Shown in pieces: positions 7,619 through 64,000 of a stretch of DNA of 64,000 bases. Both the position numbers and the translations under genes were made by a program. The notes under the pieces are model-generated. The model saw nothing but the letters and a program-made list of their open reading frames with translations. It made no database searches and was not told the DNA's origin. Each line of letters starts with the position of its first letter. The stretch's first letter is position 1. The stretch is from Amoebophrya sp. A120 (taxonomy: Eukaryota > Protista > Dinoflagellata): the NCBI GenBank assembly GCA_905178155.1, contig CAJINV010000010.1:3882599-3946598 (forward strand), read 5' to 3'.

Positions 7619-8913
7619 ATGGACCTCCACGTGCTGCAGGGCCTGGAGCAGGCGTCCTCCTCCTCCCTTGACAAAACTCTGAAGGAAGAAAAAGCCCGAC
7701 GAAAAGACAAGGAATTCCGCGAATTTCTGGTGCATTCCGGTGCGGCGGACTCTCTCCTGAAACTCGTCATTTCCCTTCGCGAGCACGAGGCGTTCACAAG
7801 TGAGAAGTTTCCGCTGTCGACCGAGGAAAAGACCGGGATTTTGAAACTTTTGTTCGACTTCTACGGATCCCAGCCAGATCCGATATGGGACGAGATCGAT
7901 TTTTTGAGAAAATCGAACACCGCCATGGGACAGGATCTGGTGACGTTGGGGAAAAGTATAAAATGAGACATAAAAGTTTAGCTGGTTGTAGTGGTTTGGT
8001 AAAACAAAAACGACTTTTGTCTTTAATACTATGAGAGTCCTCGCAGGAATACACTTGAAGTACTTTATTAGATTCACGCGGTTCATCTGTGTTGCGCAAA
8101 CACACAACTAGGTATCACCAGTGTTGAGCAGGACATTGCAGTAGTGCAAAGACGAGCTTTCGCGGTCCGGGCATGGAAATTCATCTCCAACCTCGAGGGG
8201 ACGGATGAAAGGACATTAGATATCCTGAGTAAAAACATACCCACACCAGAGTCAGGATGGGGATTTTGCAACACAAACCTAGGAGTTTTGTGAGTCACGC
8301 ATGACAAGTTGCACTATGCAGTAGTGCAGGTTAGCAAGTGCAGCCGCATCACAGATTCATCTGCTCATCCTGTTCACAGCATCACAAATTCCAAAACACA
8401 ATTGGAAATGGCTCTCATGGGGATGCGCGTTACAAGTCTTCCTGTCTTTGCAAATCTGCATTACAACTCTGGCGTGGGTACGTTTTTGCTCAGGATATTA
8501 GAAGAGGGCCAGACGCTGCAGAAACGAGACGCGATAAGCGGTAATTACAATTAGGGCTACTTATACTTTGTCATGCAGATTTGAACATAATGATAGTCCT
8601 TACACACTGCAGTTCAGCATGACAAACCGAATCCGAATTCATCATATACCAAACCGAAGGTAAAGAGTTTCTCACCCGTCTCATCGGCGCCTACAAGAAG
8701 CTCCCACACCCGTCGCTGGTCGAGCTGCCGTCGATAGAGAAGAAGAAATTTGTCAACCGAGGGGATGTGGACGACCGAATGGCGCTGGTGTTCATCCCGG
8801 AGGCCTTGGGATTGACGGAGGACAACTCGGCTGGGCCGTTGTATCCGGAACCGGACGAGGAGTGTTTCGCGAAAATCGCGGAAGTGCTGGCTGCGCTGCA
8901 GGTGGAGGAGTGA
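7619..8913 (+). CDS. MYCBP/AMY-1-like domain protein (multi-exon)
   Basis: KDKEFREFLVHSGAADSLLKLVISLRE resembles the MYCBP helix motif; further exons near 8112-8220, 8503-8540 and about 8615-8913 (...IAEVLAALQVEE*). Confidence 0.5.
8221..8497. mobile_element. introner family E (TATCCTGAGTAAAAAC TIR)
   Basis: TIRs plus TTAGA direct repeat; near-identical copy at 53790-54068. Confidence 0.9.
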
Positions 8914-16400: not shown

Positions 16401-19400
16401 CGAGGGCGGGGAGGGACTTGTGCACTCGCATATTAGAACGGTAACAGCTGCGGCGGTGGTGCCGGATGTGGGGATCAAAACGACCAGGAACAAGGAGCCG
16501 CGCCTGCCCCTGCGGGCGGAGAAGGTGGGGCCGGAGGTTCCTTTGCCCCCCTGGCAGTGTCGAGCGAAGGTGTGGCATATCCCGCGGAAAAACGTACTCA
16601 CCCTAGAATTATCATGGAAATCTAGTGCATGCTGCCGCTGCGCAGGTGCAAATGGCTACTACATGTGTCTCTTCATGCGGAGGCCGCTGAGGAGTATGAT
16701 CCGCTATGATAAGTATGAAGGAATAATTTCTTCTGCTCGAATCTTCAGCGCACGAGAGTGACGCGGCTGCACTAGACTTAATTTTAAGGGTTGAAAAAAT
16801 TAAGGTTTACATCAGGGTTTTGGTTCGTGGTTTCATAGATTTCGCAGCCCCCGCCTTTGTCCCTCTTCGCACCGCCCGGCAGTTGTCCAGGTGGTGCCTT
16901 GGTTCGTATTTCGTCTGGCTGGCAAAACCAAAGCCGCCGGGCCTTCAGAGCTGAAGGCCCTTCTACCTTGATGCCGATCCAGATTTTGTGCGAGGTGTCG
17001 CCACAATTCTGACGAGCGCACGCTGGCTGATTTGGGGGTCAGCATTTCCCTCGAGATCTAGGCTGGCATCTACGCCAGGCAAGCCGCCTCGCCTCGCGCG
17101 TTACTTGGTACGCGGAGCAGGCTGCCCGGCTTTTCTGCCTCCGGATCTCGTTCCGCAATCTTGCGGGACAACGTTCGGAGGCAGAGGTAGATCACCATCC
17201 TGGCCAGCCAAAGAGATGCTTGCCCCTGTGATGGCTGCCGCCAAAGCGGCAGGGTTTTGGTCAGGGTTTTGCTCCGAAAAGGCTCACCGCAATCGAAGCA
17301 AAAACTTATTTTTTTCGGGAGCTTCCCCCGAGCTAATAAAATAAGTTTTTGCTTTCGCTTTGCCCTCCTTTTTGTGGCTGAAAGTGTGGAGCTGTTCTGG
17401 GCCGGTATGTTCGCCCACATCGTGCCCAGACAACCTACCTGGCCCTGCAAGTTACTTGGGGCAAGTGACAGGGCGCCCGGTTGCTCTGCCTCAGGATCTC
17501 GCTCCGCAATCTTGCGGGACAATGTTCGGAGGCAGAGGTAGACCACCCTCCTGGCCAACCAAAGGGACGCCCGTTTCTGAGGCGTCCGCCGCCGACCTCA
17601 TCTGCAAACCAAAACCTTACTTTATTAGGTGGCGTTTCGGAGAAAAAATAATTAAGGTTTTGGTTTGGAGATGAGGTCGGAAGCCCGGTTTTCCCGGGGC
17701 TTCCCCCGAGCTAGTACGGTATGTCTTTGTCGTCAAATCGGCCACCCGGGTGTGCGGGTCTAGGCATGGCCAACATCCGCCGCCGGAGATTGACTGGGCA
17801 AAATCCCGGCCACAACAAGAGGGCTGCTTTCCGGGGCTGCTTTCGGAGCTCGTGTTGAAAGCAAAAACTTATTTTATTAGCTCGTGTTTCGGAAGAAAAA
17901 AAACTAAGTTTTTGATTTGAAATGAGCTCGTTATACCCAGCCGACAAAAGTCGGCCTCTCTTTTTGAGGTCAAGTTCCTACGGGCCGGCCATGGCCAGCC
18001 TCCAGCCACTGCGAGTGGCCCAGCAGGAAGTGGACCGCAAAAAGAGAGGGCGATCTTTGAGGTTGGGTTGTCGACCTCATCTCCAAACCTAAACCTTAGT
18101 TTTTTTTTGTCCGAAACGCGACCTAATAAAATAAGGCTTTGGCTTGAAGATGAGGTCGACGGCGGACACCTCAGAGCCAAGCATCTCTGTGGCTGGCCAG
18201 GAAGGTGATCTACCTCTGCCTCCGCACGTCGCCGCGCAAGATTGCGGAGCGAGATCCGGAGGCAGAAAAGACGGGCGCCCTGCCATATGCTCCAAGTAAC
18301 TTGCAGGGCCAGGTAGGTTGTCTGGGCACGATGTGGGCGAACATACCGGCCCAGAACAGCTCCACACTTTCAGCCACAAAAAGGAGGGCAAAGCGAAAGC
18401 AAAAACTTATTTTATTAGCTCGGGGGAAGCTCCCGAAAAAAATAAGTTTTTGCTTCGATTGCGGTGAGCCTTTTCGGAGCAAAACCCTGACCAAAACCCT
18501 GCCGCTTTGGCGGCAGCCATCACAGGGACAGGCATATCCGTCGTTGGCCGTTAAGGTGCTCTGCCTCTGCCTCCTCCCGTTGTCCCGCAAGATTGTGGAA
18601 CGAGATCCGGGGGCAGAGAAGCCGGGCGCCCTGCCAGTTGCTCCAGGTGGCTTGCACGACGAAGCAGGCCGCCTCGACACGATATGGGCGAGCATATCGG
18701 CGCAGCTCGGCTCCGCACTTTCGGCCACAAGATGAAGCACAAAGCGAAAGCAAAAGCTTACTTTTCTAGATCGGGGGAAGCTCCCGGGAAAAGTAAGTCT
18801 TTGCGTCCATGTCCGTGAGCCTCTTCTGAGCAAAACCCTGGCCAAAACCTTGCCGCTTTGGCGGCAGCCACTACAGGGACAAGCATCTCTGTGGCTGGCC
18901 AGGAAGGTGCTCTACCTTTGCCTCCGGACGGCGTCCCGCAAGATTGCGGAACGAGATGCGGGGGCAGAGAAGCCGGGCGCCCTGCCATTTGCTCCAGGGA
19001 ACTCGCAGGAAAAGGCAGGCCGCCAGGCCAAGATATGGGCGCCCGTGTCGGCCCAGTTTAGGCCACCAAGTTCGGCCGAAAGGGGGGGGCCAGGGCAAGG
19101 GCAAAGGCGCAAGCGTTAGTCTGGGGAAAGCTCCCGGAAAAAGTCAGAACCTGCTTCCATTTTGGTGCGCTTTTGTCATGAAAAGGCCTAGCCGAGAACT
19201 TGCCGCCTTGGCGGCAACCGGGACCCGGCCAAACCTCCAGCCGGGCAAGCCCGCAGCTGCTCAGCCTCTTCCCCCGGACCCCGCTACGCGCCACCGCAGG
19301 ATGAGATCTGGGGGCGGAGAAGCCAGGCCAGCAGCCCGGCGCCCCAAATACCTCGCGGCGGATGGCATGCGTCTGGGGTTCTTCTGGGGAGGTGCCGAGG

Positions 19401-23105: not shown

Positions 23106-23367
23106 TATCAAATGTAAAAATGTCTGGGTCTGGAAAGTTGGAACTTGTGATGCTAACTTTGGACTCTAAAAAAATGTGTATTGCATGACCAGCAAGAGGA
23201 CCCACATTTGTGCTACGCGAGGAGGGCATTTGTCATGCGGAAATGGCATCAGGAAGCTTTCCAAAAATCTGTGATGCTGGGTCATGCGTTACAAGCATCA
23301 TGGGTCATGCCAGACAAGCATGACAAGCCTTCCATTCTTCCAGACCCAGACATTTTTATATTTGATA
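23106..23367. mobile_element. introner family A in 3' UTR
   Basis: TIRs; CTCGCT flanking repeat, 20 bp after the TRAPPC1 stop. Confidence 0.85.
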
Positions 23368-30327: not shown

Positions 30328-30711
30328 ATGAAGGCACTTTTTTCCTTTGATACCATTGCGGGAGCTGGAACCATGGCTCGTCCGGCTAGCGTGGCGGGGA
30401 CTGCTGGAGACGCCAGCGGAAGTGGAGGTGAGAGCGCGGGAGGCGTCGAAGGCGTGGGAGTCGAAGGCACAGCAGGCGCCGTGGGAGGCGAAGGCACAGT
30501 AAGCGCAGGCGCAGCCGCAGGCGCAGGCGCAGGCGCAGGCGCAGGCGCAGGCGCAGGCGCAGGCGCAGGCGCAGGCGCAGGCGCAGGCGCAGGCGCAGGC
30601 GCAGGCGCAGGCGCAGGCGCAGGCGCAGGCGCAGGCGCAGGCGCAGGCGCAGGCGCAGGCGCGGGAAAAGAAGAAGTTGTGACGGACACTGCCGAGACCA
30701 CCTGCTGCTAG
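30328..30711 (+). CDS. Ala-Gly repeat ORF; probable 3' remnant or short paralog of the 31395 gene
   Basis: Ends EEVVTDTAETTCC* versus EEGVTETTEGCC*; shared downstream motif ACAAAAAATTTC-CA-AGCAGCCCACTTC (about 30842 and 34263). Confidence 0.4.
   Translation: MKALFSFDTIAGAGTMARPASVAGTAGDASGSGGESAGGVEGVGVEGTAGAVGGEGTVSAGAAAGAGAGAGAGAGAGAGAGAGAGAGAGAGAGAGAGAGAGAGAGAGAGAGAGKEEVVTDTAETTCC
30505..30660. repeat. (GCAGGC)n microsatellite, about 26 copies
   Basis: Directly visible. Confidence 0.97.
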
Positions 30712-45961: not shown

Positions 45962-47625
45962 GGTGCGACACGGGGCGGGGACAGCTACTTACTTTGATGT
46001 GTCGGAATAGATGAAGGTGAAATTAAGAAATGCCCTGGTATTCATACAAATTTCTACACTCTCCTCCTTTAGGTTCATTGTACAAACTGACACCCAATCT
46101 CAATCTATCTGTAAAAAAGCTCCAGCAACAAGAGCTTCTATTCCTTGCTACACTATTGGTAGTACCCGATAATTTCTGTATGATGCTAGTTTGCAAAAGA
46201 GAATGAGGAAATTTTCCTAGAATCATCCTGGATACTTAAATCAAATGTAGTTTTCCTGTCCGATGAAGGTTTATTGAACTGGATGCTGAATCTGAAACCC
46301 AGAACCCACGACAAGATTGATTCTTGGGGTGGCGTGTAAGAATGTAAATGAAGATTCCAAATGTACCTTGCAAGTATTACTTCCGAACTACAAGCGGGCA
46401 CGCAATGCCCGCAAGTACAAAGTCATCTTTGTTGGCTCTTCTGAGCAACTTAGTGACATCGGTTTTATCGGGAGCACGACCAGTCTCTGTTGCATCTTGC
46501 AGATCACGCGTGCTGCTCCTGACCCGAGTGTTCTTTTTTCCCAGTTGTGATCATAAAAACAGGCTCCGCTTCTCAGGTTGTAGCACTTATTTTCGTGTTG
46601 GTGCACGCCGGTCGGTCCAGGAGAGGCATTTGCTCGTTTTCTCATCGATCCAGTGCTGATCTTCGGTTTGTGATGTCGTGCCAGAAGAATTCTTGATAAA
46701 AATAAGGATTTGGAAGTTCATGATGGACGCGTTCACGTTTTGATTGTGGCAAAAACGTGCCTGAAATCTTGCCAACGTTTGCTTCCACTGTCGTAGTGCG
46801 TCTGCGTTTCCTGACTACGACAGGGATTTGCCGCCCTTTCGAGCGCCTACAAGACGATAAAAGCAGCCGTCAGTGGAGGTCTGTTCGTATCTAGACACGG
46901 CGGGACGCTGACTTGAGCCAGCGAAAACCCCTCTTCGGCGGAGGATAATTCCAGTTTTAGGTCGTATCTGGAGACGAACACGCGTCCGAAGCCGCGGCCC
47001 CGCACCCACCTACACGGAGGCTTGATTGGCGCCGCGCAGATCAACTTCGCCAAAGTTTATTGAGATTGACCCCCGAAAAGATCCCAAAAAGAAAAAAAGA
47101 CGGCAAGGGACAAAAAAGAAACAGCCGCGCCCCATTTCTGTGCACGATCCCAAAAGAAAAAAAGACGGCAGGGACATTCATTTTTTTTGCCGCAGGGGCC
47201 GGGGGTCAACATACATGTTCCACATCTCGGGCCTCCCGTTTCCCTGACCGAAATCTCGCGCTGCACGAATTTCGCGTCTTTGCCGGGGACAGTAAACGTC
47301 GACCGGGGAGCGGTTTCCGAGCGGGACAGAACTGTTTGACGCCTTGGCAAGGGCTGTTCCTGATCCCAGACGAGCACGACGTCGTGTCTGAAGACGAACG
47401 TGCGAACGAGCGACGCGGCCCGCGCAACAGAACCAGGACGCCAGTTTACGCCTGGCATCCATCGATTCTGCTCCAGCCAAACCACTGGAAAGCGCAGAAA
47501 AACGGGAAAAACCGGGAGAAAGCAACAAGGCAACAGATAGAGATCAGCAGTTTTTAGGTGTAAACGGCAAGCAGCAGCATAGCGAAACAAACGCGCGAGG
47601 GCGAGGGGTATAGAGCTGGAAGTGA

Positions 47626-48924
47626 ATGGTCACGCTGTTGCCTCCGCTTGAAGAAGACGAACACCTCCACACACAGGACTCCGTATCAAGCAGACGCCTC
47701 GACACTGCGATATGCGCGTCACGGCCCGTTGCCATGTCTCCGGCTTCGGGCGACGTTGCAATGAACATTAGCGACGACACGAAGAACAGGAGATCAACGC
47801 TAACCGCGCGCTTCGGACCATCGAGCAGCTGGGCGGGCCAGCAGGACGATCGCCCGGAGTCGTCGATACCGCTGTTCCAGGCTAAAGGCACCTGTGCCAG
47901 CGCTAGTCCGTGGCTTCGCGACGAAACTGTTTTCCCGCAAGCAGCTGTACGGCGGAACGTAGACTCTACGTTGTTGGACCTGAACAACAGATTTGTAGCT
48001 GGTCCGTCGTCATCCTCCTACGCCCTAGCAACAACAGGGTCGTCGCGGGCAGCCCAGCGATCGCAGCCTGTGTCCGTAATAGACATCTCCACCCCCTCCC
48101 CGAAAAGACAAGCTTCAGTGCAGAACACAGAGTTCTGCGGACCTGCCCCCAACCCTGATACGAGCATGGGGGGCGGACGATACAAGAACGACTGGAGCAG
48201 AGCCGCAGGGAGCGGGAACGCGGGGCGAGGCTACGGCAGACAGGGGCGCGACTGGTACGACGGGAACGACCGCTACAACGAAGCCAGAGGTGGCCGTGGC
48301 CGCGACCACTCGAACGACCGCGATTGGCGACACCATGAACGTGGGGAGGGTGACCGTGGAACCAGATACCACGGTGACCGTGACCAGCAGGAAGGTGGAT
48401 TTGACAGCAACAGAGACAACTACCACAGCCCAACCCGCCGAGGGCATCCGCACTACCAGGTGCAGGGGAGCAGCAGCAACAACAGCAACAACGCCTCGCA
48501 CCGACCTCCATCTGCCCGTCGAGATGAGGAGATTGAGCGCCCGGGGAGAGGAAGAGGAAGGCGAGGGGGGAAAGGGAACGGCAAGCGGGGTGGCAAGCCG
48601 GAGCGGCGTGAGATCCGCACTGACATTCCGGCCCCAGACTGGCGAGTTTGCTCCAGCGGGGAGTCTGAGGGATGGGTAAGCCACGTCGTGGAGCGGGACA
48701 ACTACGGCTTCATCGTACCACGCAAGCGGCTCGAGTATAACGAGTGGAAAGCAGGACTTGACGCCGACATCAAAGCCACCGAGGTGGAGCTGCAGGACGT
48801 TTACCACGCTACGATTATGTTCCACTACAACCAGGTCCTGCAAGGCACCCCGGCCCGCCCGCGCATTTCTCATCGATCCCGTGCTGATCTTCGGTTTGTG
48901 ATGTCGTGCCAGATGAAGTTGTAG
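47626..48924 (+). pseudogene. RG-rich ORF with a truncated cold-shock/OB-like domain (captured gene fragment?)
   Basis: RGG-rich tract then EGWVSHVVERDNYGFIVP...IMFHYNQV; the frame runs into the direct repeat and stops there; no introners. Confidence 0.45.
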
Positions 48925-49647
48925 TTAACGCTGGACCGCCCGGTGTAAAAATAAATTCAAAATGATTTCAAACTGAATTCAAAATGTAAGGGTTTTCGAA
49001 AATCCGTTTATTTTTGCGGAATTTGCATAGCAGTCGGACACGAAGATTCCGCACAACATGACTGGGTTATTAGGGCGCTGCTTGAGGAGGATTTTGTTCA
49101 CACGATTAGGAGGAAACCGTATCCGGGGCTGCGTGTGGCTTCTATGCACAGAAGCTTCAACATCCTGACCAGAGTTGCGATCACCTGCAGCTGAACCAGC
49201 ATAGATACAGGGTGAGGCAAATCGGGGCGCCATCGCGAAGAAGCTTCTAGAACCGACGCCAACCTTTAGGCGGGGCGGCCTGCGATCGCAATTTCTTTCT
49301 CCTCGTCCACCAACACCACCCTCGACCATCACGCTTTTATGTCTACCTAGCATCAGAAATTATCCACTTATAAATAAAAGTATTTATCTATGTGTCGACA
49401 GCACAGCAGTAATTTTGCAGCCACTTGAATCGATTGCATACCCCGCGCGAAGCCAGTCAAGCTGGTATCGAGTGCCTTCCAACCGAATCCAAGGAGCGCA
49501 TCACGGAGGACGAAGTACGAGCAGCGGTTTGGACTGGAAGTGGACGAGCACCGGCGGCACGGGAGGGGCGTCAGCATTTTGCTCAACCCGCAGTATGCGA
49601 AGAGGGGCGGTCTTGAGCATGCAGAACAAGCTTCATGATGCGACTGT

Positions 49648-50571
49648 TTGGAGTTGGACCCGACCGAAGCAGACGTGAAACAAACAGGGCGATGCCAGCG
49701 CTCTTCTTCGCATGGATTCATTGCAGCTACAGCACTAGGCAGTGGCGCAACATTTTTCGAAAATGCAGGCGGGCGTCCTTGCGATTGGACCGGACTGCTA
49801 CTTCTGGCAGATATGGTTCTGACCCACATCTCAACAAGCCTACTCGCGGCCGGTCGCGGAAAGTTAACAGCACCGTCGGGAAATAATAACGCCGCAAGCA
49901 CAGGCCCGAAAACTAGCGAGGCACTTACCGTCGACTTCTCCCGGGGGACCAGCAAGCCTGGCCCCGGTTGCCACGTAGTCCCCCTTCCTTCCCATTGCGA
50001 GCAGCATGGAGTCGGAACATCGTTGGAGGAGGGAGCCTATCTGTATTTATTGAAGGTGGGGGCGGATCCGGTCGCATGGGAGAAGCAGGTGAACGCTGTG
50101 GGGCGACTGGTTGGCAACCATCAGCTTTCGGTGCAGGCCAAGATCATGCAGGAGTTGCCCTCCCGTCTGCACGTGCCGGTCGGCCCAGATCGACAGCTTT
50201 TGCTGCTGCCACCTGAAGCAAACAACGGCCTCATGAATAAGTACACCAAGGCATTCAAGCAGTACCTCGTCGGGACTCCGTATGGCCTGCGCAGATCCTC
50301 GGAAACGGGAACAGAGAAGGAGCGGGAGGTCGCCTCCGCGTTGCAGAGGCTCAGCATTGATGTCGATGCTCGGGGGCAGAAGCAGTTGACATTCGTCTTC
50401 ACAGATGACGAGCTGCACCAACATGGCGGCGCAGACAAGGCGAAACTGGCAATGTTGGGCGTCATGCAATCAGTTACGAGGGGGATACGGCCTATCAGTT
50501 TTTCCCGGTGGATCCGGAGTGGCGATGACTTGAGCCGCATCGTGATCGTTTTCTCATCGATCCCGTGCTGA
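49648..50571 (+). pseudogene. uncharacterised ORF fragment in the second cassette
   Basis: 307-aa ORF terminating inside the third direct repeat; no introners. Confidence 0.3.
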
Positions 50572-51261
50572 TCTTCGGTTTGTGATGTCGTGCCAGATGA
50601 AGTTGTAGATGGTAGACCAAGAACTACGCTGATCAAGCTCGTTCTGGTGTACAGAAGAACGATCCATGTCGTGCAGTTGTGATTCAGATCAAGCAGTTTG
50701 CAGTTCTACTTGATGCCATACCTACACGGCGAAGATCTGACACAACGTGAGGATGATCTTTCTGGAAGTGAGAAGGTCAGCCCAGCACAAGTGGTTCTGC
50801 GTCAACTACGAACGTGTGGCTGTATCCTGCTTGTTGCTTATTTGTCATTACCATCTTCAAGGCGAACTTCGTGCGCAAATCCGGACTGTGAAACACTTTT
50901 AACTGTAATGAAAGAGCCTTCTCGGCTTGTCAATTGGTAGCTTGCTTCTCTTCAAAGAGGCAATGTTATAGACAACATTTCTAATTTACAACTCACAGCG
51001 ACAAACACTGACACTGAGTAGAAATTTACTACGACGTTTTTGGCGACATGATTTACTTATTTACATTCAACAAAAATCACGAACTTTGAGTTTCTCTTCT
51101 GGCTTACGTAACAAAAATCAAAACTATTATTTCGTATACGAGCCGTTTCCAATTCCATCCCCCTACACGTTACCTCCCCACTCGTCCCCTCCCCGAAAAA
51201 AAAAATAACTACACACACGACTACGTGTTATGTTTGACACAAGAAGAAGAGCAACTTGAAA

Positions 51262-54200
51262 ATGCCAGCGGCAGACGACAACTTTTTGCACTTTGCGAAA
51301 TTGGCCGGCGGCGGCGAGGTACAACTAGTGCAGGTAGAGGAGACGCTGCTGCCGCCGGAAGAGGACGCTGCACTGCCTCTCAAGGATGTATCGTATCCGA
51401 AATTCAAGTATCCTGTGCAAAAGTATCGTACTCGTACTAATTGCAAATGTGCACGACAAATATTTTTCCCAAGGTAAAACAGCATTACAAATTCCACTTT
51501 TCTTCTTGCCAAAATTTGTGATGCAATTTATACTTTGTGCGATACTTTTGCAATGCATATCAAGGAGCTGCTGCAGGAGATCTGCACCACCCCGGACGAC
51601 CACATCACGCTCCCGAAAGCGACGCTGGAGATCGAACTTCCGCGCGTTCCGGCAGAGTTTGTGTTGTGCGTGCCGAAAGGGCCCACATTGCAGCGATGCG
51701 CACCATACATGGTCGAAAACGCCACCTACATGGCTTTAACCTGCGCCAGAGGATACGACGAGCGCAACAACTACAAGCCGGGGAAAATAAACGGGGAGAA
51801 TGTGAAAGGTAGCTTGAAACATTTGTTCTAGAAGTCCTGTGTGCGTGCATGCCGTCGTCTTCTCTGGCGGGTGATGTTTTCAGTTGAGTGCTTTTCATAA
51901 AGAGAACGAGCACAAAGCCCAACAGTGTTTTTACTTGTCGTGGCAATCACAAAATTGATAAATGAAAACTACAGCCTCTTCTCCGCAGTCCTACCTTTTG
52001 CTAGACGAGGATACGCTGGACAGAACGAAGCAGCTTGCATTGCTGTTCCTGCATTGCTGCAACAGTGGGCGAGCCGACCGCCACCTCCTGTTCGTCCACA
52101 AAGCGAATTCCATCGAGAAGGCGAAAAAGGATCTGAATTTTCTAAGTGGGCATGATGATCCGAAGCCCGATGAAGATGAATTCAAAAACGGGGGCGAAGA
52201 CGTTATTATGGCTGACGCTGAGGAGGAACAACAACAAGACGACGGGGAGAACATCAAGAACAATTCGGACGACCTGCTCGGCAGGTCCACGTCGCGCCTG
52301 AATGTCGCAACCTTCGAGCAGGCGATTTTGTTGGAGGAAAAGCGGAGAGAACGGCGGAGGAGGGAAAGCAAATCGAAGAAGAGGACCGACTCCAAAAAGA
52401 GCACGAAAAGCACGGCCGCCACTGGTGGCGTCGAGACAGAAAACGAGACTCAGGACGTAGGAGATACAACGCAACTGGTATTTATTCAAGTTTCAGTATC
52501 TTCTTCAAGCTGTTTTATCCCATGAAACTGATGTATGGTTTTGTGTCTTTCGTAGATAGAGCAAGAGGTAGTGGTACTTTATTATGTAGTGATATTAACA
52601 GTCGACGCTTCATCGGCTCCCAGCACCAAAGCGCAGGGAACTATTTTGATACGCGTAGATTGATAGCTTTACCTTTCCTTGACATGATGGCTTTGTGAAT
52701 AGAATTTTGAAAATCGCTCTAATCATCAGGATCCTGTCGCAGCGGAAGATGAGCACGAAAAACCGGACCAGAAAAGTTCCGATGCACTAGTGCAAGTAGA
52801 ACAGGACAAGAACCAGAAAGAGGAGGAACAGCAGTTTTTCGACCTGCAGGACCAAGTCGAAAAAGCTAATGTGCTCATCGTTGAGTACGGTCAACTTGGC
52901 GCGAATTCCGCCGAATCCAGTGTCTTGCTGCTCCGGAAGTGGTTGAATATCAATTGTAAAAATGTCTGGGTCTGGAAGAATTCATGGCTGTCATGCTTGT
53001 CTGGCATGACTCTTAAATCTGTCATGCACGTTACCCAAGAGCTCCGTTTTTCTGTGATGCAGAAGCGCAGTTTGTCATGCAGAATAGGCAACACCTAGGA
53101 GCTCAGAAACTTGTCACGCTGAGCCAGCATTTGTAGCCTCATCATGAGACGCCGCCCAGCGTCACAAGTTTCCAGACCCAGACATTTTTACTTTTGATAT
53201 TGAAGGGTGGTAATACTAGGAGTTCCGGCACGGGCATCGTTTGTTTCGACGACGCGCACTGCATTCGGAACTGCAACTTCCTAAGAATTGCAAACACGTC
53301 TGGGTCTGGAACCTTGCAACTTTAGCTTGTAATGCTAGAAGAAGGTGGTCTAGCTGGCCACAGAAGAATTTGTGCTGCATGAAGTAGAACAGCATATAGC
53401 ATCTGTGAAAATTTTTGTAACGTTAATGTATGAGAATGATTATCTCGTGCGGGACGGGCATGGCGAAGCATGATTTTCAAAACCTGTAGTAATGCTTTGT
53501 CTTCCATCCCATAAAGCGCAAGCGGCATGAAGCAAATGGACTTCTGCATTTTTCCGAACCCCGACATTATGTTTGCACTGGATACTTCGTCAACGGCGAC
53601 CACATGTTCGACGATCTGGAAGAGGATCAAAACAGCACCCAGAATGCAGAACAAGACGATAATGGAGGCGTAGGTGAAAACGAAAATGAAAATCCGGACC
53701 AACCCGGCCTTCTCGGGCAACAAGGACAGCAGGAGCAGGAGGTGGAAGACGCGCAGGAGAGGAATGAAGCCATTCTGCGGAGTCGCCCGTATCCTGAGTA
53801 AAAACGTACCCACACCAGAGTCAGGATGGGGATTTTGCAACACAAACCTAGGAGTTTTGTGAGTCACGCATGACAAGTTGCGCTCTGTAGTGTAGTGCAG
53901 GTTAGCAAGTGCAGCCGCATCACAGATTCATCTGCTCATCCTGTTCACAGCATCACAAATTCCAAAACACGATTGGAAATGGCTCTCATGCGGATGCGCA
54001 TTACAAGTCTTCCTGTCTTTGCAAATCTGCATTACAACTCTGGTGTGGGTACGTTTTTACTCAGGATATTTTTTTCTACTTGTTGTCTGCGTTCTAGTGA
54101 TGTACTTTTCTGAATGTGTATCCACGGAAAAAACTGTGTTAGTGTAACTTTCCTTGGCTGACAGCATCACAAATTTGCTCTACACAACAGAGACAACCTG

Positions 54201-54848
54201 TCATGCGTGGCTTGCAAGGGAAAACACTCGTGAAAAGAGGACTTCGTGGTTGTGCGGCATGACAGGTGTACCTCTGTTGCATGTTCTGCATTACAGAGTT
54301 ACACTTACACAGTTTTTTTCTTGCATAGTGTGTGGATATGATGACGGCGTCCCAGTCTTGGGATATCAACAAAAGCTTTTTTGCTGGCCTTGCGGTTTTG
54401 TCAAAAGGTGGAGCCCTGGGGTTGCCGGGACGGAGTGTTCGTGGCCAAGAACGCGTTTCAAGCGCTCGCCGACCGCGAGGAGTTTCTGGCGAAGAATTTC
54501 AAAACCGTGAGAAAAAACGTCAACGCAGAGGGCGATGATCAGGAAGAGGGCGAGGATGCTGACAACGAGGAAGATGCTGATGGCGCCAACAACAACAACA
54601 TGGAGCGCGTGAAAGTGAGTCGACTCCCCGGGTTCCGTCTGCGGGATAAGCTTGTAAAAAAAAGAATAGAAGATCCGAAGGGGTACTATGAGTTGGTTAA
54701 GCAATTCACCAACCAGTCCGTCCAAAAGGAGAAGGAAAGAATGCGAAAGGAGGAACAAGCCCCGGCGGGGGCCGAAGAAGAAGTACTAGATGGTAACGAG
54801 AATCGAATAGCTTCGCCCGCTGGGTGTGAAATCGCAAACTTGCGCTAG
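51262..54848 (+). CDS. hypothetical acidic multi-exon protein (3' structure uncertain)
   Basis: Coding-like exons joined across introners 51409-51559 (TCAAG), 52948-53199 (TTGAA) and 53282-53584; further introners at 53790-54068 and 54119-54327 plus GT-AG introns; frame not resolved near 54070-54350. Confidence 0.55.
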
Positions 54849-56636
54849 AAGGTTCAGTTTTGTGGAAAATTCTTCTCCGCCCGCGGTTCGCTCTAGCCCG
54901 ACGGTGCACGCTGCCGGTACTTCGTTTTCCCCTCGTGGCGACGTCGAGGTGCTGAGTCGTGCTCGACGAAGGACTACTTCGTGTAGCGTACGACACCTGC
55001 TTGAAGACTGACTGACGGACATCATGCCAACCTGTGCGTCTCTCCTCACCGCTTGCTTGCAGACTGGTGGAAGCTACTGCTACGGCAGCTGACGAAACGA
55101 TCACGATCGAAAGAGAATGCGTTCGACGTCTGTCTTCGATGTGGCACACAACAGGTATGAAGAAATTTATAAGACAATAAGCATTTTTGCACTACAGTGT
55201 AGTACGTTCGGCGTAGGTTGCAGCGAATTTTGAATTGACCACGTAGCACCACGTCGTCGCGAAGGAAAAATCGATATTCTAATACTAAAAAACAGAAATC
55301 ATCACGGGATCGGTGCGTTGTGCGAACAGGGAAACGGGGTCGATCAAGAGACGGGAATCAGCCGGCAAACGTGGTGAACAAAAAAAACGTCTTTTGGGTC
55401 TTGCAGTGTCCACGGATGGTTGTAATGATATACTCATTATGTTTCTGAAGCGGAAAAGATGAAGTTTCTGGTTCGACATGTCGCCGAACTGGACTACAGC
55501 TGTCCAGTATGTGAATAAAAAATTTTGTAGTAATGTCCACACGGTGCAAAAAATGTACGACGAAAATTTGCAATTAGAACGGATGATATGAGACGCGCAC
55601 GACTTACACGGAAAGATTTGTTCGCCGCGTATGTGACGTCCTCGAGGAATCAAGGACGCGAACAGCACGAATTACAGGATACTGATGATCTCGAGCAGGT
55701 CGAGATGGGTGAAGTGCTGATCAATCGCTGATGTTGTAAATGTATAGATCCGGAAATTGTTGCTCACGCATCAAAATTGGAGCCACTCACCAATATATGA
55801 AAAAATGTAGGATCTACAGTGATCGCATATGATCGTCGTGCACGACAAACGTCAGGTCGTGGGGAGACTGTCGTACGACAGAAGAAATTTTGATCGTGAT
55901 GGGGTTGTCGTACAATAGACGGAATTAAGATCGGGGTGGGATTGTCGTGCAACGTCATAGTATCCGAATGCAGTTAGTGATCGTCATAGAAATTATGTTC
56001 AAATAGTGAGTTCATGATGCAAAAATGAAAAAATGAATCTGGATTTTTCTACGCCACAGTTTTTCACTCGGGTCGATTGTACTGAAAGTTTTTTCACCTG
56101 CGGTCCACCCAGTGACGTCTTCGAGTCCATCGTAGTTTAAAAAATTATGACTTTTTTTATAGGGAGTTCTGGAACTTTATCAACGTTTATCAATCGATCG
56201 CGGCTACGTAAAATATTTGCGGAATAGATAGTCACAACTCTGTACAATCGGACAATCGTAAACAAATGCAAGCATACTTTTAGGCTTTCAATTTTTTTAG
56301 CACGGGGATTTTTCAGGTGACTCTATTTGATTAGACCGCAAGTGTAATATTTACAGTTTATTCTATACGCGGAGAGCGACTGAGTAACCCGGGCGGCACG
56401 GAATGGTGCGGCGATGCAAATTATCGTTGAGAAAAATAGGTCGTCGTGGAGTATACCACTTGATGCATGCATGAATGGCGACAAAGAAAAGTTGCATGTA
56501 GTTGGTGGGATCTGTACATGGGCCGGATTTTGGTGTGAAGTGAATGGACGGAGAATATCGCCAGTCGCCGAGCGTGGTCACGTACCAAGATCAAAATGAT
56601 ATTGCTCCACGATGACGACTTTTGCACTTAATAAAA

Positions 56637-59600
56637 ATGCGCGGTCGAACTCGACCCCCCAATTTCTTGTACACGGGACGCCACGGCTATGGAAGCGTCA
56701 GGTTTGAAATCGTCAGAGTTGAAATAGTTTGTCATGCACAAAGTGCAGCCCTCAAGGTGCCTGCCTTGCAGAGTATGCAAGTGAGGTATATTGTAAGCCG
56801 GTTGTGGGGTAGAAACTGAGCTGCTGAAATAGCATGACAGAACGCGTCTTTCTTACCCAAACAGCATGACAGACTGGATTGCGGCTCTGCCCAAATTGGT
56901 CATGCGCCACTTGGAAACTGGGTCACAACTTTCATCCATTTTATGCATGACAAAGTACTTCAATTTTGTCGATTTCAACTCTGAGACATCCATAACGGCT
57001 CGGCCGAAGACTCGCGAATGCAATCGTATAATTTTGCGGCGCAAGGATGCGGACGGGAAATTAGAGCCGCCTTCGATTATGATGATGAAGTTGTTACGCT
57101 CTTCAGGATGTTTAATGATCGCCGCCCCGCCGGCAGAGGAAACATGTTGAGGGGCTCAATCCGAGGAACACTCTCCAACAACCATGAAAATAGGTTGTGT
57201 CCGGAGTGTAGGTTGAACTTGTTTTACCTGAAGAGCTCAATCACGTCTGGACATGAGTTTGAAGCTGTCCGCCATGGACAGTCGTAACGTATTTCTTCTT
57301 GCGGTAGCACTACTGACTGTACAGGCACGGAGGGCGTAACAATACGACACTGCATACACGAATTCTGCCGACTCCACCGCGGACTTCCGATCGAATGTTT
57401 TGAATGCGCAAAACACTTACCCAATTCAAGTTTTCGGGAAGCCGTGCAGAAGGAGGTTGGATTTCGGCTGTTATCATCCTCTATGGTGTTGCTTTCGTCA
57501 CGCGGATAGAAATTTGTAATGCATAAATCAGAAACATCGACCACATGCTGTACTACAGTTTGTATTTTTCGGGCAACCTTTGACATATTCTCGGCTGATG
57601 TCTTCCGTGCACAGTCTCGCAGTTCGATGTAGCTCATGGAATGCTTCAACTTGTCGCGGGTAGGCTTTGATCAGTGCGAGCCATCGCTTCGCACAGAGAA
57701 AAAGTCCCTCTATTGAGCAGACCGCTGGAACGAAACTCACTGCATAAACACGATGCGACGCATGCCTGTTTGCATCGCGAAAAGATGTGAAACTCCCGGG
57801 AAACACGTTGGAGGGGAAGTACAAAATGCGTATCGCTACGGAAGGAGAAGTGGAAGAGGAGGTGGAGTACTGCCAAGAAGTGCCGACTCCGACTGGCACG
57901 CGGCCGCTTTTTACCCCATGTCCTGAAGGTTGCGGATTCGGTCTGCTGGAGGGTGAGACCTCCGGCATGTGTTGCAGTGGACGGGGGATATTTATCGAGG
58001 GAAAAAATCTTCCTTCTCCTTATCGAAACGAAGTTTCTGGGGTACGATTTTCGCACACGAATCGGATTCGTCCGGCTGAAGAGGATGACAGGTGTATACG
58101 ACGCCTGACTTGAGGAGTTTTAGGCTGGACTTTTTTGGATATGCACATCAATGTCATGAGTCGCGACTTTGGCGATATACAGAGGTGGGATTTTTTCCTA
58201 ACGATAATTTCGGTAAAGCGGTGGCACCGATGGTACACGGAGAGTGGATCACTTCATCGTGCCCGACAGGCGCGATGGTATGAGCTTTAGCAAATGTAAA
58301 AATGTTTCCGTTTAGAAAACCGCCGCAACAGATTTTATGCTCGGAGGTCATCTTCACACCGCAATACGTTGCGTGAACGGGAAAAAGGGTAAGTACTAAT
58401 GATGTACCGAAGAGGGGCGGTAGACATGCAGGATCGGCATCTTGTAGGTCTTACAGAATGTCGTAGGGCAGGACACTCATAACATACAGCATGAGACATG
58501 GAAAATTGGCATTGCAAGTTTCCGAATCTTTCTGAAGCGGACACTTTTACAGTCCAGAAGCTTCTTCGACGCGCAGAGGACCACGAAGTAACGTACAAAT
58601 TTCCGATCATGCGGAAACTGAATCGAGACAGTCGACTGACAGTACGGCTGGGAAACATGAAGAAGGTGCACTGGGACGAATCAAATGTAACCCTCAAAGG
58701 ACGATATGCGGATGTAATCCGCTACTGGGACGAATTAACGATAGAAAATGTTGTCACCTCGACACGAAGAACGACTTTGCCTGCAGCGGACATAGGACAC
58801 GGAGGACTATGCAGAGTAAAAAAGTATGCAGTTAGGAGTTGTGGCGACCCATAAGTCACCTCCGAGGTGCTGCGGTGCATTTTCTGGTGATGGGCATTTT
58901 ATATGATTTGCATCGACAATGGTAAAAAAAGCGTGTATGTGATCCGTGTTTGATTGGGGTGACTATTTCGGTTTATAGGCGCGTCACCCTTTATACTGCC
59001 ACTGGATCCAGACAGAGGCGGAGGAGGATGTCGTAATGCAGGACAATCAAGAAAGGGAGAGTCGAGCTGCTGCACAACGTCGCGACTACGCGGCAATCAA
59101 AAAAAGCTTCATCGAATTTTTGGTGGAAGCGTCGCCCGTGTATAAGGCTATTTACGACGCACTCACTAACTCCGGGTTCGCGCCGGGCGAAGTACAGTGC
59201 GTAACCGTGAAGACCGAGAGAAACACACCGAGTGTGACTGCAGTCCTAGTAAACCGAGGCGATCTCGTGGACTCCGGAATTTATATTCGGAGTCGTCCGC
59301 CCCGCGCAGCAGCTGAGGAAGCCAGCGATGACAGCGATTCCGAGTCAGAAGAGGTGTCACCTCCGGAACCACAGGCGGAAGACGATTACTTACCGATGGA
59401 CGTCGAAGGCGAACAGGAATACTCGAGTTCTTTTTTCGACGCGTTTCGGAGTGAGGATTCGGACACCCTGGAAGATCCGAGTGACTTCGACGCGGAGGAC
59501 GAATCGTCAACAGAAGAACTGTCTGATGCAGGTGAAGAGGGACACGATCTTCCCCCCCAAATGGACTGGAAACATCAGCACAACGCGCTCCAATATTCTT

Positions 59601-62600
59601 CTGTGGTATGTCAGTGTAATTGTTAAACTTGTTGCTGGAAGGTAGAAAAGGAAAGAAAAAACATTTTGCGTAGTACTGAATGGAGGCGGAAGATGAGCGT
59701 AGGTTTGCGTGATCGAGGTTTTTTCGATTTGCACCGCATGAGTATCTCCTTCTAGTTTCAGCATCGAATTTTTCGCATAAATGCATTACTTGTTGATTTG
59801 CCTGCCATACCCGTATGATGCAATCAGCTATCCACTACTTTTCCCCTTCGGCGTATGGGAGTGTCCAGAACGAAATCGTCAAAATCGAAAGTAAAATTTG
59901 GCTGTTTTTGGCGGAGGCAGTCCGGGGCACGCTTATCGTGGCCTCTTTGCGATTCGGACACACGTCAGCATACCGTCGCGGCTTTGTCAAAAAGGTCTCA
60001 GTGTGTCAGAATCGAAATGCAGATCTCGGCACCTTGCCATGGGGCCCTTGGATTTTCTTTTGATGGAGCGAATTTCGATCTTGACATCTGCATACGGAGG
60101 TGGATATGCCTTGCATGGTCGATAAGGAAGTGGTTACATCGGGATAGACCAAGACGGGGACTCGACCACTACGATAAGCCCTCTAGTTTGCTTGGAGTCC
60201 GGAATTGGGGGCGCTAGGATTGACAAATTTTGAGAACATCAGAATTCGCGTCCACATCCTCCCACTCGGGTGCGCTATTGTTAGTACAACAAATTTGGTG
60301 CTTCACCTTTACCGGTCGACATTCAGTTTTACTTGTATAGTCCATAAAATCGGCGTGTCGGGTCTTACGTTATCGACTTGGTCGATTTCGAATTTGGAAC
60401 TTCCATAATCGACGAATCGATGAGTCGCCGCAGGTATCAAATGTAAAAATATCTGGCTCTGGAAAAATGCAGCGCGTCACGCTAAAGTTGGAGGAGACGA
60501 AAACGTGTGTTGCGTGATTACCAAAAGTCGTACTGTTTTGACTAAGGTGGGAGTGAGTTTCTCTTGTATGATGGGCGTCGGAATGATCGTGCCGAATCTG
60601 CCAAGCTCGGTCTTGCCCTCGAGACCGTAGGGGTCATGGAAAAGCTGCATGACAAATCGAGCATTCTTCTCGTCTAAGACACTTTTACATTCGATCGCGG
60701 GAGGAAATCGATGACGCCGCCGCTGCTGGTAGTGCTCGGGTGAAAAGTGCACAAATTACACGATCTAGCTTCGTTGTGCAGTCGGCGGAACTTCCGCACT
60801 GGCGAGAGGTCGAAGCTCTATGCGAAGAGTATTACATTGCGCAGTATCTGGCAATATCAAACGTAAAACTGTCAGGGTCTGGAAAGTTGGAACTTGTAAT
60901 GCTGGTCTTGCATTCCTGTGGAAACTGTATTGCATGACCAAGAACAGTTGTAGCCTCTTCTGTCATACAAAAACGCAGTTTGTCATGCGGAGTTCGTATG
61001 AGAAAGCGTGCTGCAACCTTGTAATGCTTTCCTGCATAAGCAAGAGGCTTCCTCTTGCACATTTTAGCATCACAAATTCCCAGACCCAGACATTTTTTGC
61101 AATGCACAGGCAAGGGAAAACGACGGCGCGGCGTTCATGAGTCGGAACGGGATTTCGGATCCGGACAAACCTCGAATGTTGCCGAGAGACCACCTGGGGT
61201 CCGCAGCTTACGTCCGAGAAATGCGGTCGCTATGGATTGCAAAAAGGTCTGGGTCCGGAAAAATGAAACTGGTGCCGCTTTTGGTGAAGTCTAAAAAATC
61301 TGTATTGCATGAGTCGGAGGATGTTTCCAGTTTTTGCCGTTCGGAGGAGGTATCTGTCATTCGTGATAGACATCAAGATATCCGCAAAAAATATGCCAAG
61401 CGAAGTCATGGATTACAGGAATGTTAGACTCTACGAAATATGCATGACAAACCTGGAAATCTACAGACGCAGACCTTTTTACACTCGGTAGTCCCGGGCT
61501 CGGAACTATCTCCGCAACTAAAGTGTCCGTGTCATGGCCAGCACACAGGAACCGACGCGCTTGCATCTTTTTTGGCTGTGCCTTGTTCGGACGCAAAGCA
61601 TTCGAATGCGACGCTTCAGACTGCGCCGCGAGAATATGATCATGATACGGGGACACTTTTGGGAAGGAGATAATTTTACAGCGTTCGAAGGGGCCGGCGA
61701 CGGACTTCTATCGTCAAGAAAAATCCCTCCCCTGATATCAGAACGGAATACCTTGCGCATGATATATCGTACACGAATCAGCTTCGTTCGGCCGAGCGAC
61801 CGCGGGGCGAGATCCCTCGGGCCCTTGTTTAGACTGAACTGCATGCGAAACTAAAATCACGACGGGGGGGCTTTTTCTACTCTAATCGGCCTGGAAGACG
61901 AATGCGATCTGCTGTCTCCAATCAAAAATGCAAAATTTGGAAAACATACCTCTTCGATATGGGTAGGAGGGGATTTTTCCATATGATAGACTCATCACGA
62001 TGACTACCAATCTGCGGTTTATCATTTAAAAAAACTTTCCTGCTCCGTCTATTTGGTGGCGTCCTTGTCACAAATTCTGTGCCATGCATGACACTACAAA
62101 GTAGACGCGGAAGAGTCATTTTCCGAGAATATCGGGGCGGGAGATCCGGCAGATGGGAGGGCGCGGGTATTCGTCGGATTCAACGAATACTCGCGCCTTT
62201 CGTTGGCGATAGGGGGGGAGAAAGCAACGGCTGAAATCGTCGACCTTGGAAACTTCTGCATTGCAAAAGAAAAAAACAGCATATAGCAGCCGGACGAAAT
62301 ATATCCTACTTCGTGGCATTGGCATTGGAATAAAACTAATGAAGGTTCAACTTGGACTCGTTTTGTCGGTTTCGGAGGCTCGGTCTAACCGGGACACAAT
62401 TTTTGTATGATTTAATTTTTCGACCGGCACGATTTCGACGTTGACATGACCATAGAACGCTGCGGCAATTCCTAGCCGACCTAAAAAAAGGAGTTTACGG
62501 AATATGAAGGTCTCAGGTGTTTCGCTTCTCGACGGTCTGGTGCAGGTGTCACGTAAAAGTCTTACGTTTATCCCAACTCAGTTTACACATCTATCTTGCA

Positions 62601-64000
62601 AGGCTACCACGCTCTAGTGAAGGACTGGACTGGTTCGTAGGACTGACGTATTTACTGTAGTCACTTTCTGCATTTTCCTGGATTTTATCGGGATGTTCTT
62701 ACACCTTGGAGTCATAAGTTCGCTCTATCCTAGTTGTCCAAGATCGTGCAGCACGCGAGAGCGAACACTTGAAATTACCATAGAGGCGGTGCGTCTGGTA
62801 CGCGTTGGCGGTTTATCACATGTGAAAACGTCAGGACCTGGAAGAAACCAATCTTGTGATGCGCATGTCGGAATTCGGAAAATTCACTCATGCATAGGCA
62901 GTAAGTGTTTCCCTGTTATGTCACCTAAGTCACGAATTTGTCATGCTGAGTCGACACTCCCGACGTTTTTCGAAACCTGTAATGCTGGAGTTTTCATGCC
63001 AGACCTTCGGCTTCGTGCAGAAATAGCCCGACTCTTCCAGGCTCCGAAATTTTTACACTGGAGACTGTCGAGTGGCAGTTTCGGGGGCTGCCGCCTATGG
63101 ATGCGTCAGAGTTGAAATCGTTGAAGTTGAGACAATGTTTTACGCATACAATGCATGTTCGTCGAAACATCGGTTTGAAGTCGACCATTACAAACTTAGA
63201 TAGTCTCTAAATCCGGTCGGTCACGTTGTTTAGGCAGGGAGAAGTGCTGTTTCTCTCTTAGTTTAGCAACTCGAGCTGTAGCTCCAAACAGGCCTACAGT
63301 CGACTTCACTTTTTTATTCTGCGACGCACATAAACTAAGTAGTGCATTTTATGTATTAGAAACGATCTCAATTTTGACGATGTCAACTCAGACCCTCTCA
63401 TACCGTACGTGCACATCGTATGTCGGCGAACGCCGCTCTGGGAGACGCCGACCGACATGGATAAATTTTTGACGACGCAAAACTACTCCACGTCAATGAC
63501 AAATCTCCACATGAAACAGTATGCAGGTGGTAGGATCGAATTGCTTAAAATTGAAAAGAGTTGAAAAATAAAAGCTTGATTTTGTCGATGGGTGCTGGGT
63601 GCTGCATGTATGTCCGACACCGCGGACGAAGCGGCAGGGAGGGCGATTTGGACCGAGTTTCTTTTTTCAAAATCCGCAAACTCGATCTACCACGTACCAT
63701 ACGCGCGTCTGTCGACGGAACATTTGTGGGCGAGATGAGGGCGATCCGGCGGGGAGGCGCTGTAAGAAGAATATGAACGTCTCCGATCGGAAATCTTCAG
63801 GGTACGAAATAGTTTGTAATGCAAAACAGCGAACTCACCTACGACACTCCTTCTAGTCGGCGCACGATGAACTTCCCCGGTACGGAAAACGTTTTGGTCA
63901 TGCTAGTTAGGCGTGGGAGCGGCATTTTGCCATCGGCTCAGCCGTCTAACTCGTAATCCGTAGAAGGATAGTAATCGGCTTTCATGGTGTTGTCTGCAGT
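56637..64000 (+). CDS. Helitron Rep(/helicase) protein, HUH endonuclease region (Helitron_like_N), 3'-truncated by window end
   Basis: Spliced: CPEGCGFGLLEGETSGMCCSGRG; YDAISYPLLFPFG; EEYYIAQYLARE; MLPRDHLGSAAYVREM; DFITMTTNLRWREI; RAFRWRLRQFLADLKKGVYG; AVEWQFRGLPHVHIV; TPTDMDKFL. Exons before 57787 are less certain. Confidence 0.85.
56688..56994. mobile_element. introner family B
   Basis: TIRs; ACGGC direct repeat. Confidence 0.88.
57993..63722. mobile_element. series of about 18 mostly diverged introners inside the Helitron gene
   Basis: 57993-58206, 58288-58558, 58705-58853, 58902-58995, 59607-59809, 59854-60094, 60123-60407, 60435-60696, 60855-61108, 61231-61490, 61507-61672, 61709-61988, 62020-62131, 62210-62454, 62503-62782, 62814-63064, 63096-63402, 63484-63722. 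Confidence 0.75.

Follow-up and report, generated by a model that had tools for sequence, protein, structure and literature searches.

The RepHel genes of plant Helitrons carry ordinary introns. Helitron-like elements of the types HLE1 and HLE2, as defined in PMC11417382, encode RepHel proteins with the domains PF14214 and PF05970 (HELIANO), and DUF6570 is reported there almost only in HLE2. In Paramecium aurelia, the open reading frames (ORFs) of Helitrons are described as being under purifying selection and as containing up to four internal eliminated sequences (IESs), in 9 of 29 elements (PMC13085455). For Amoebophrya, putative transposases are reported only in A25, and the absence of transposases from A120 was used to exclude a general transposase-driven spread of introners (PMC7789003). 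The word Helitron has no occurrence in the text and the supplement text of that paper, whose image figure S4 (repeats) may bear on the point. In its passages on origin, PMC12130899 derives the introners of A120 from long terminal repeat (LTR), non-LTR and terminal inverted repeat (TIR) elements, and mentions one Helitron-derived introner from a fungus and no Helitron of Amoebophrya. Here, we analysed a window of 64,000 nucleotides (nt) of Amoebophrya sp. A120 (contig CAJINV010000010.1, 3,882,599 to 3,946,598, forward strand), the whole stretch to which all coordinates below refer, and describe near its end a Helitron Rep gene that is divided by introners.

Positions 57787 to 63770 are the coding part for Rep, an HUH nuclease, of a divergent Helitron-like element, split by introners. 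The preliminary description of the window had recognised no transposase among the raw ORFs, and indeed none of the 21 unspliced ORFs has a Helitron match in Pfam (four have weak, unrelated matches). Excision of 17 complete introners (117 to 312 nt) leaves 18 exons (5 to 600 nt, 1,858 nt in total), after which an eighteenth introner starts at 63771, in agreement with the number of about 18 given before. The joined exons encode 619 amino acids (aa) with 0 stops, compared to 25 and 18 stops in the other two frames. The stop-free frame that had been claimed for this interval was thus recovered, but it needs two shifts: junction 3 was moved by −1 nt and junction 10 by −2 nt. The gene had also been called intact, which is true of the N-terminal two-thirds of Rep, but the window stops before the position of the catalytic Tyr.

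The Helitron motifs are found in the joined frame in the order originally proposed, namely a Cys-rich knuckle, YPLLFP, LP-x-GS, motif 1 and the HUH motif. The patterns of motif 1 and HUH motif 2, which occur in 87 and 115 of 120 relatives, respectively, are both present, and motif 1 is retained together with both His of the HUH motif. A Helitron profile search with the spliced peptide, which had been suggested as a check, gave clear matches using our own profiles from PF14214-positive proteins instead of the Pfam model. A motif scan of metagenome contigs resulted in 115 loci, and the long ORFs tested among the fetched loci contained PF14214 in 8 of 8 and PIF1 in 6 of 8 cases. Against a first profile, built from 31 Helitron proteins with long upstream parts, the model scored 89.5 bits (best of 300 shuffles: 4.5 bits) and still 48.2 bits with the fetching motif masked. 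A second profile, based on 70 of the 73 suitable hits of a further search, yielded 75.4 bits. The top local alignments to Helitron Rep proteins showed 23–39 % identity. Among the best pairwise matches was L062:3-4304, a marine metagenome Helitron RepHel (33 % over 176 aa), which carries an acidic insert in a comparable position and does not group with the model in a tree. In this tree of 41 rows, all of HLE1 type, the model forms a branch of 7.0 changes per site (median 0.49) with no placed sister. The catalytic Tyr motif, seen in 112 of 120 relatives, follows the Glu of the HUH motif at a median distance of 142 residues (expected at 137–162), and the window ends 67 residues past this Glu in the model.

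Several further searches were negative. Motif scans for HLE2 proteins and of viral contigs returned no hits, Rfam had no match over 54000–64000, a PDB sequence search with the HUH-containing ORF gave 0 hits, and the window holds no credible helicase match elsewhere. Word-based homologue searches covering longer proteins retrieved 0 of 14 candidates for exon 1 and 0 of 328 for the first 100 aa of exon 4, in a database whose content of proteins from this organism was unchecked, which limits both nulls; an annotated copy of the gene was thus not found there. An Atlas search with exon 1 gave no usable match, and an alignment of exon fragments to Helitron scaffolds misplaced the fragments and was dropped.

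A whole-library search with exon 4 alone found a single protein among 1.84 billion representatives. This protein, here called P0121, is an unnamed Logan/ENA entry of 433 aa in a singleton cluster, encoded on a 10.7-kb contig. It aligns to residues 187–544 of the model (exons 4–14) with 31 % identity over 392 columns and a pairwise E-value of 3e-32. P0121 has no introners over this span and is colinear with the model across about ten junctions, including the 5-nt exon 6 and the off-rule junction 10, where the exon lengths on both sides fit without a gap. Like the model, it has the acidic insert and the deletion before LP-x-GS. In contrast to the model, its motif 1 is degenerate with an insertion, and its sequence ends just before the HUH motif. 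On its own, P0121 stays below zero on both Helitron profiles and has no Pfam match, and hhalign gave a probability of 67 % (E = 5e-5). In the Atlas it lies nearest to Helitron_like_N clusters (0.92), with DUF6570 in 60 % of the members of the top cluster. These neighbours are a weak lead towards HLE2, with recognition below threshold and 169 shared features. Viral and prokaryotic contigs contained no relatives of P0121.

The window is densely packed with elements of 140–340 nt that carry terminal inverted repeats (TAT...ATA) and flanking 5-nt direct repeats. Both features match the introners described for A120 in PMC7789003. RNA-like contigs from one sample contain two joints, 53788–54073 and 54114–54329, in the gene upstream of the Rep locus, and both obey the same rule: the intron begins 1 nt before TAT and ends 4 nt after ATA, so that the element plus 5 nt is removed. 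The offsets are fixed by the first joint, because its introner lacks a direct repeat; the second is ambiguous inside its direct repeat. Besides these two joints, the rule is based on open frames in five host-gene groups. On the plus strand, the frame was open in groups A, D, E, F and G but not in B, C and H, probably due to undetected introns inside the latter. The first RNA-joined introner (53790–54070) is 96 % identical over 281 nt to introner 8221–8499. The latter has a perfect 5-nt direct repeat, the former matches at 0 of 5 positions and is still spliced at the standard offsets in the RNA contigs; a direct repeat is therefore unnecessary for splice-site choice. A separate observation concerns introner 23106–23367, which has near-perfect arms and a direct repeat shifted by one base, a candidate off-rule junction in a host gene whose frame test was unreadable.

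Applied to the Rep gene, the rule keeps the frame demanded by homology at 15 of 17 junctions. Ten of the 17 elements (delimited between 57993 and 63701) have exact TAT and ATA ends, and the ends of the seven degenerate ones were set from the alignment of the arms and the matching direct repeats, in part by eye. For this reason, we used as fair counts the exact-ended elements, of which 9 of 10 were in the right frame (P = 3.6e-4 at 1/3 each), and those detected by a blind scan (5 of 6, P = 0.018). Without adjustment, the rule resulted in 8 stops with the first break at residue 178. Displacing any of junctions 1–16 by 1 or 2 nt led to 3–24 stops; for junction 17 a second open frame exists. Leaving out exon 6 caused 7 stops and halved the alignment score with P0121 from 404 to 201. 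That a product of free-hand splicing is at work here, with 17 adjustable junctions keeping any frame open and stitching motifs together, is very improbable: seven ends were indeed degenerate and placed by eye and two junctions were adjusted for frame, but a rule taken from the RNA of another gene fits 9 of the 10 exact-ended elements, the motifs have the order and spacing of Helitrons, and the match of the independent, uninterrupted P0121 across the junctions largely refutes it.

All parts of the gene lie on the plus strand. Exon 1 (57787–57991, 205 nt as modelled) encodes the Cys-rich knuckle; its frame is open from 57748 with the first ATG at 57826, and its 5' end is provisional. Introner 1 (57992–58210, 219 nt) obeys the rule and is followed by exon 2 (58211–58277, 67 nt), introner 2 (58278–58571, 294 nt), whose degenerate 3' end was placed via its direct-repeat match, and exon 3 (58572–58806, 235 nt). 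Introner 3 (58807–59005, 199 nt) would end at 59006 by the rule, and the frame requires one nucleotide less. Exon 4 (59006–59605, 600 nt) contains the acidic insert in common with P0121. Introner 4 (59606–59813, 208 nt) again obeys the rule and separates it from exon 5 (59814–59852, 39 nt) with YPLLFP, and the micro-exon 6 (60099–60103, 5 nt) is enclosed by introner 5 (59853–60098, 246 nt, direct repeat 4/5) and introner 6 (60104–60411, 308 nt, weak 5' arm). Then follow exon 7 (60412–60433, 22 nt), introner 7 (60434–60700, 267 nt), which belongs to a large family, exon 8 (60701–60853, 153 nt) and introner 8 (60854–61112, 259 nt), the sole one of the 17 with a perfect 5-nt direct repeat. LP-x-GS is encoded by exon 9 (61113–61229, 117 nt), which precedes introner 9 (61230–61494, 265 nt) and exon 10 (61495–61505, 11 nt). 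Introner 10 (61506–61674, 169 nt) should end at 61676 by the rule; the frame and the colinearity with P0121 require two nucleotides less.

Downstream of exon 11 (61675–61707, 33 nt) and introner 11 (61708–61992, 285 nt), the core of Rep motif 1 lies in exon 12 (61993–62018, 26 nt) and its end, beyond introner 12 (62019–62135, 117 nt), in exon 13 (62136–62208, 73 nt). Introner 13 (62209–62458, 250 nt) has a degenerate 5' arm. It is followed by exon 14 (62459–62501, 43 nt), introner 14 (62502–62786, 285 nt), exon 15 (62787–62812, 26 nt) and introner 15 (62813–63068, 256 nt). The HUH motif 2 is interrupted by introner 16 (63095–63406, 312 nt), with its first part in exon 16 (63069–63094, 26 nt) and both His in exon 17 (63407–63518, 112 nt). 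The frame of exon 18 (63706–63770, 65 nt), behind introner 17 (63519–63705, 187 nt), was taken from the rule and from a Cys/His likeness seen by eye, and a second frame is open there as well. The 5' part of introner 18 (63771–64000, element from 63772) continues past the window end, and its 3' arm lies beyond it. Upstream of exon 1, a weak inverted repeat marks a tentative additional introner (57481–57750, plus strand); its excision by the rule would extend the frame to 57340 (678 aa, 0 stops). Further upstream, an ATG at 56637 precedes a young introner (56687–56998, plus strand; element 56688–56994) with a perfect direct repeat, after which the frame is open to 57287. This stretch (56637–57287) has no Pfam match and represents either a small gene of its own or the 5' portion of the Rep gene. 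We did not accept a chain linking this ATG to the Rep frame, which either requires a junction outside the rule or encounters a stop at 57285.

The introners of the Rep gene look old. A TAT start is present in 16 of 17 and an ATA end as well in 10 of 17, the arm scores range from 12 to 36 of 60, and the direct repeats at their boundaries match at 42 of 85 positions (about 21 expected by chance), with 1 of 17 perfect. Outside the gene, 26 of 45 scan-detected elements have perfect 5-nt repeats, a comparison biased in both directions, as the scan misses old host introners and some of the 45 are false calls (in shuffled DNA, the scan made 6 per 30 kb). Restricted to scan-detected elements (45 versus 6), the difference is modest (P 0.035–0.04). 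In a credible host subset (35 of 45), the median arm score was 45 of 60, compared to 27 in the Rep gene; the median normalised similarity to the best host element was 0.46 versus 0.13, and the distance between the inverted-repeat arms 0.19 versus 0.50, or about 0.15 more per arm in the Rep gene. The earlier statement that these introners are more diverged than those of host genes is borne out by repeats, arm scores and arm distances, albeit with this detection bias. Introners 7, 8, 9, 15 and 16 have very deep coverage in the DNA runs from other genome copies and introners 2, 3 and 4 almost none; these mixed ages point to serial insertion.

In neutral-substitution trials (substitutions without indels), 401 of 2000 frames stayed open at 0.02 changes per site, 31 at 0.05 and 0 at 0.1, 0.2 and 0.4. 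Since neutral decay at the age of the introners would have left stops, the exons were very likely under selection while most of the introners aged, and the stop-free frame, the introner ages and these trials together uphold the proposal of an old, selected frame. The evidence for selection is the survival of a frame without stop codons, and selection at the transposon level would give the same result.

Two DNA-like runs from a single sample, from which the assembly may have been made, have long gapless contigs over the stretch, and one contig extends 2,583 nt past 64000. Because both runs cover the off-rule junctions without gaps, these are not assembly errors. The mean depth of the locus contigs was 49.7 and 82.2, against medians of 28.4 and 45.8 for 13 other single contigs. 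One run breaks at 58536–58544, where the other has two changed letters, and a few changes of letters other than A are specific to one run. The excess depth together with these variant sites hints at a collapsed, nearly identical second copy. Other letter differences are mostly from A to another base, are found in an upstream RNA contig too and appear to be noise in the contigs. None of the six exon differences checked creates a stop. At the RNA level, four shallow RNA-like contig sets show the upstream gene spliced at a depth of 4–33; such contigs show presence, not absence. A run search gave no matching RNA run. The raw-read RNA runs X7 and X8 matched at repeats only; as X7 also missed the host genes, both are uninformative.

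Taken together, the profile scores, the motif order and the colinearity with P0121 support the idea put forward in the preliminary description, a Helitron Rep gene shredded by introners. We consider it likely that this is an old, selected gene that needs non-canonical splicing, the core common to the readings discussed below. Among these, we tentatively prefer, at somewhat less than even chances, a long-lived, low-copy Helitron that depends on the splicing of its host. In its favour, an intact Rep belongs a priori more often to a transposon, a comparable case is known from Paramecium, and the depth hints at a recent second copy. Introners would have struck the Rep element singly over a long period, each insertion duplicating about 5 nt, and the frame would have been restored by removal of the element together with 5 nt. 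Copies with stops in exons would have failed to propagate, so that the exons stayed open while the introners decayed. A rolling-circle element copies DNA and may hence pass introns on and seldom lose them, which we propose as the reason for about 9 introns per kb of coding sequence, compared to 1.42 reported for the A120 genome. The transposase would then be produced only when the non-canonical splicing of the host takes out every introner. The long-lived Helitron predicts the catalytic Tyr motif about 60–75 codons beyond the window end, then a Pif1 helicase, and low or stage-limited expression.

A number of observations weigh against this interpretation. Two of the 17 junctions (3 and 10) deviate from the splice rule, the model protein sits on a branch of 7.0 changes per site and lacks about 20 residues before LP-x-GS, and the positions of helicase, catalytic Tyr and termini are all beyond the window. 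No copy matching the exons at 82–99 % identity was seen in either DNA run, as the depth over exons 3–4 equals that of the single contig, and hence no relics of past transposition were seen. The depth ratios (1.75 and 1.80) come from a comparison without flanking-gene control, in which depth is no copy number. Finally, the four RNA-like contig sets, all from one sample, contain no piece that matches the Rep exons, apart from introner repeats.

The strongest rival, possible and somewhat less probable, is a domesticated, immobile Helitron-derived HUH nuclease under selection at the host level, whose weak expression would have let it fill with old introners. It predicts a lone, fixed and selected copy, and diverged sister copies of the exons were indeed not seen; a single fixed transposon copy should decay, and yet the frame is open. 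The gene also has the same strand as the readable neighbouring host genes, its branch is very long, and the single relative found among the 1.84 billion representatives has a degenerate motif 1. However, the roughly 1.8-fold depth and the variant sites hint at a second copy, and no transcript was seen on the exons in the shallow contig sets. In addition, the prior for domestication is low: literature searches by title gave no domesticated RepHel gene, nor did they return an introner-filled transposase.

An extended form of the Helitron reading appears doubtful to us: a still-mobile, autonomous Helitron of an undescribed clade with at least 30 non-canonical introns, an obligate client of hairpin-guided, U1-less splicing, and, by extension, missing transposases of A120, including the one that spreads introners, that are shredded likewise. 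The Rep enzyme itself was rejected as the mobiliser of the introners, as Helitrons, according to their description in PMC11417382, make no target-site duplication.

Less probable again is a recently dead copy that selection maintained for a long time until a frameshift at junction 3 or 10, or damage further downstream, disrupted it. The pure splice rule does break the frame at residue 178, and both junctions are gapless in the DNA runs and hence no assembly errors. The rule may also be strict, since even the host introner that lacks a direct repeat keeps the standard offsets, and no RNA was seen on the exons. On the other hand, both departures fall on junctions, and the exon lengths around junction 10 match P0121 gaplessly. 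In A120, moreover, the inverted repeat lies 1–5 nt from the splice site according to a supplement legend of PMC7789003, and 619 stop-free codons limit the time of neutral evolution to less than about 0.05 changes per site. We regard a recent death as unlikely and keep the long-lived Helitron as the tentatively preferred reading.

A well-kept gene of a transposase family that is invisible to an ORF search means that such enzymes could be missed, and suggests that similar genomes hide transposase genes from annotation. The element-plus-5-nt rule makes a genome-wide search for hidden transposases straightforward. Furthermore, with 17 introners that are graded in age within a conserved protein, a 5-nt exon and two junctions that depart from the rule, the gene is a natural test of splice-site choice without GT-AG. 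Should it turn out to be immobile and conserved, it would be a candidate for a domesticated Helitron nuclease, of which the title searches found no report.

Some other features of the window were noticed. A 59-nt sequence occurs in three direct copies (46631–46689, 48866–48924 and 50550–50608; 95–100 %), two of which sit at the ends of intron-free ORFs without Pfam match (47626–48921, 432 aa; 49639–50568, 310 aa); copies and ORFs are possibly remnants of mobile elements. Positions 17117–17679 and 18072–18634 form an inverted duplication of 563 nt (90 % identity) with an element-like centre (17875–18128). Excision of four introners by the rule from 10570–12580 leaves an open frame of 318 aa, which, judging by its motifs, is presumably similar to the C-terminal part of a family X DNA polymerase. 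A long six-base microsatellite at about 30430–30690 reads as Gln-Ala repeats and was noticed through tblastn matches alone.

In comparison with known systems, the model shares motifs, order and spacing with the RepHel proteins of HLE1 and HLE2 as presented in PMC11417382. It is far more diverged than these, has at least 18 non-canonical introns and an acidic insert of 150 aa, and is read here for the Rep part alone. Like the Helitrons of Paramecium, it is an alveolate ORF whose expression presupposes that the host takes out transposon-derived inserts (PMC13085455), and our finding is less surprising since Helitron ORFs interrupted by host-removed transposon relics are already reported there. 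The Paramecium account describes at most 4 inserts per 9–10 kb ORF, removal from DNA by PiggyMac, a frequency like that of cellular genes, and multi-copy active families (PMC13085455). In contrast, the Rep gene has 17 inserts in 1.86 kb, a predicted removal from RNA, about six times the genome mean and one or two copies. Its inserts resemble the introners of A120, as characterised in the relevant parts of PMC7789003 and PMC12130899, in their TAT inverted repeats with an A-run, direct repeats of 3–5 nt, a length of 120–310 nt and no fixed splice dinucleotides. Unlike in the earlier descriptions of A120 introners, they fill a gene of a transposase family.

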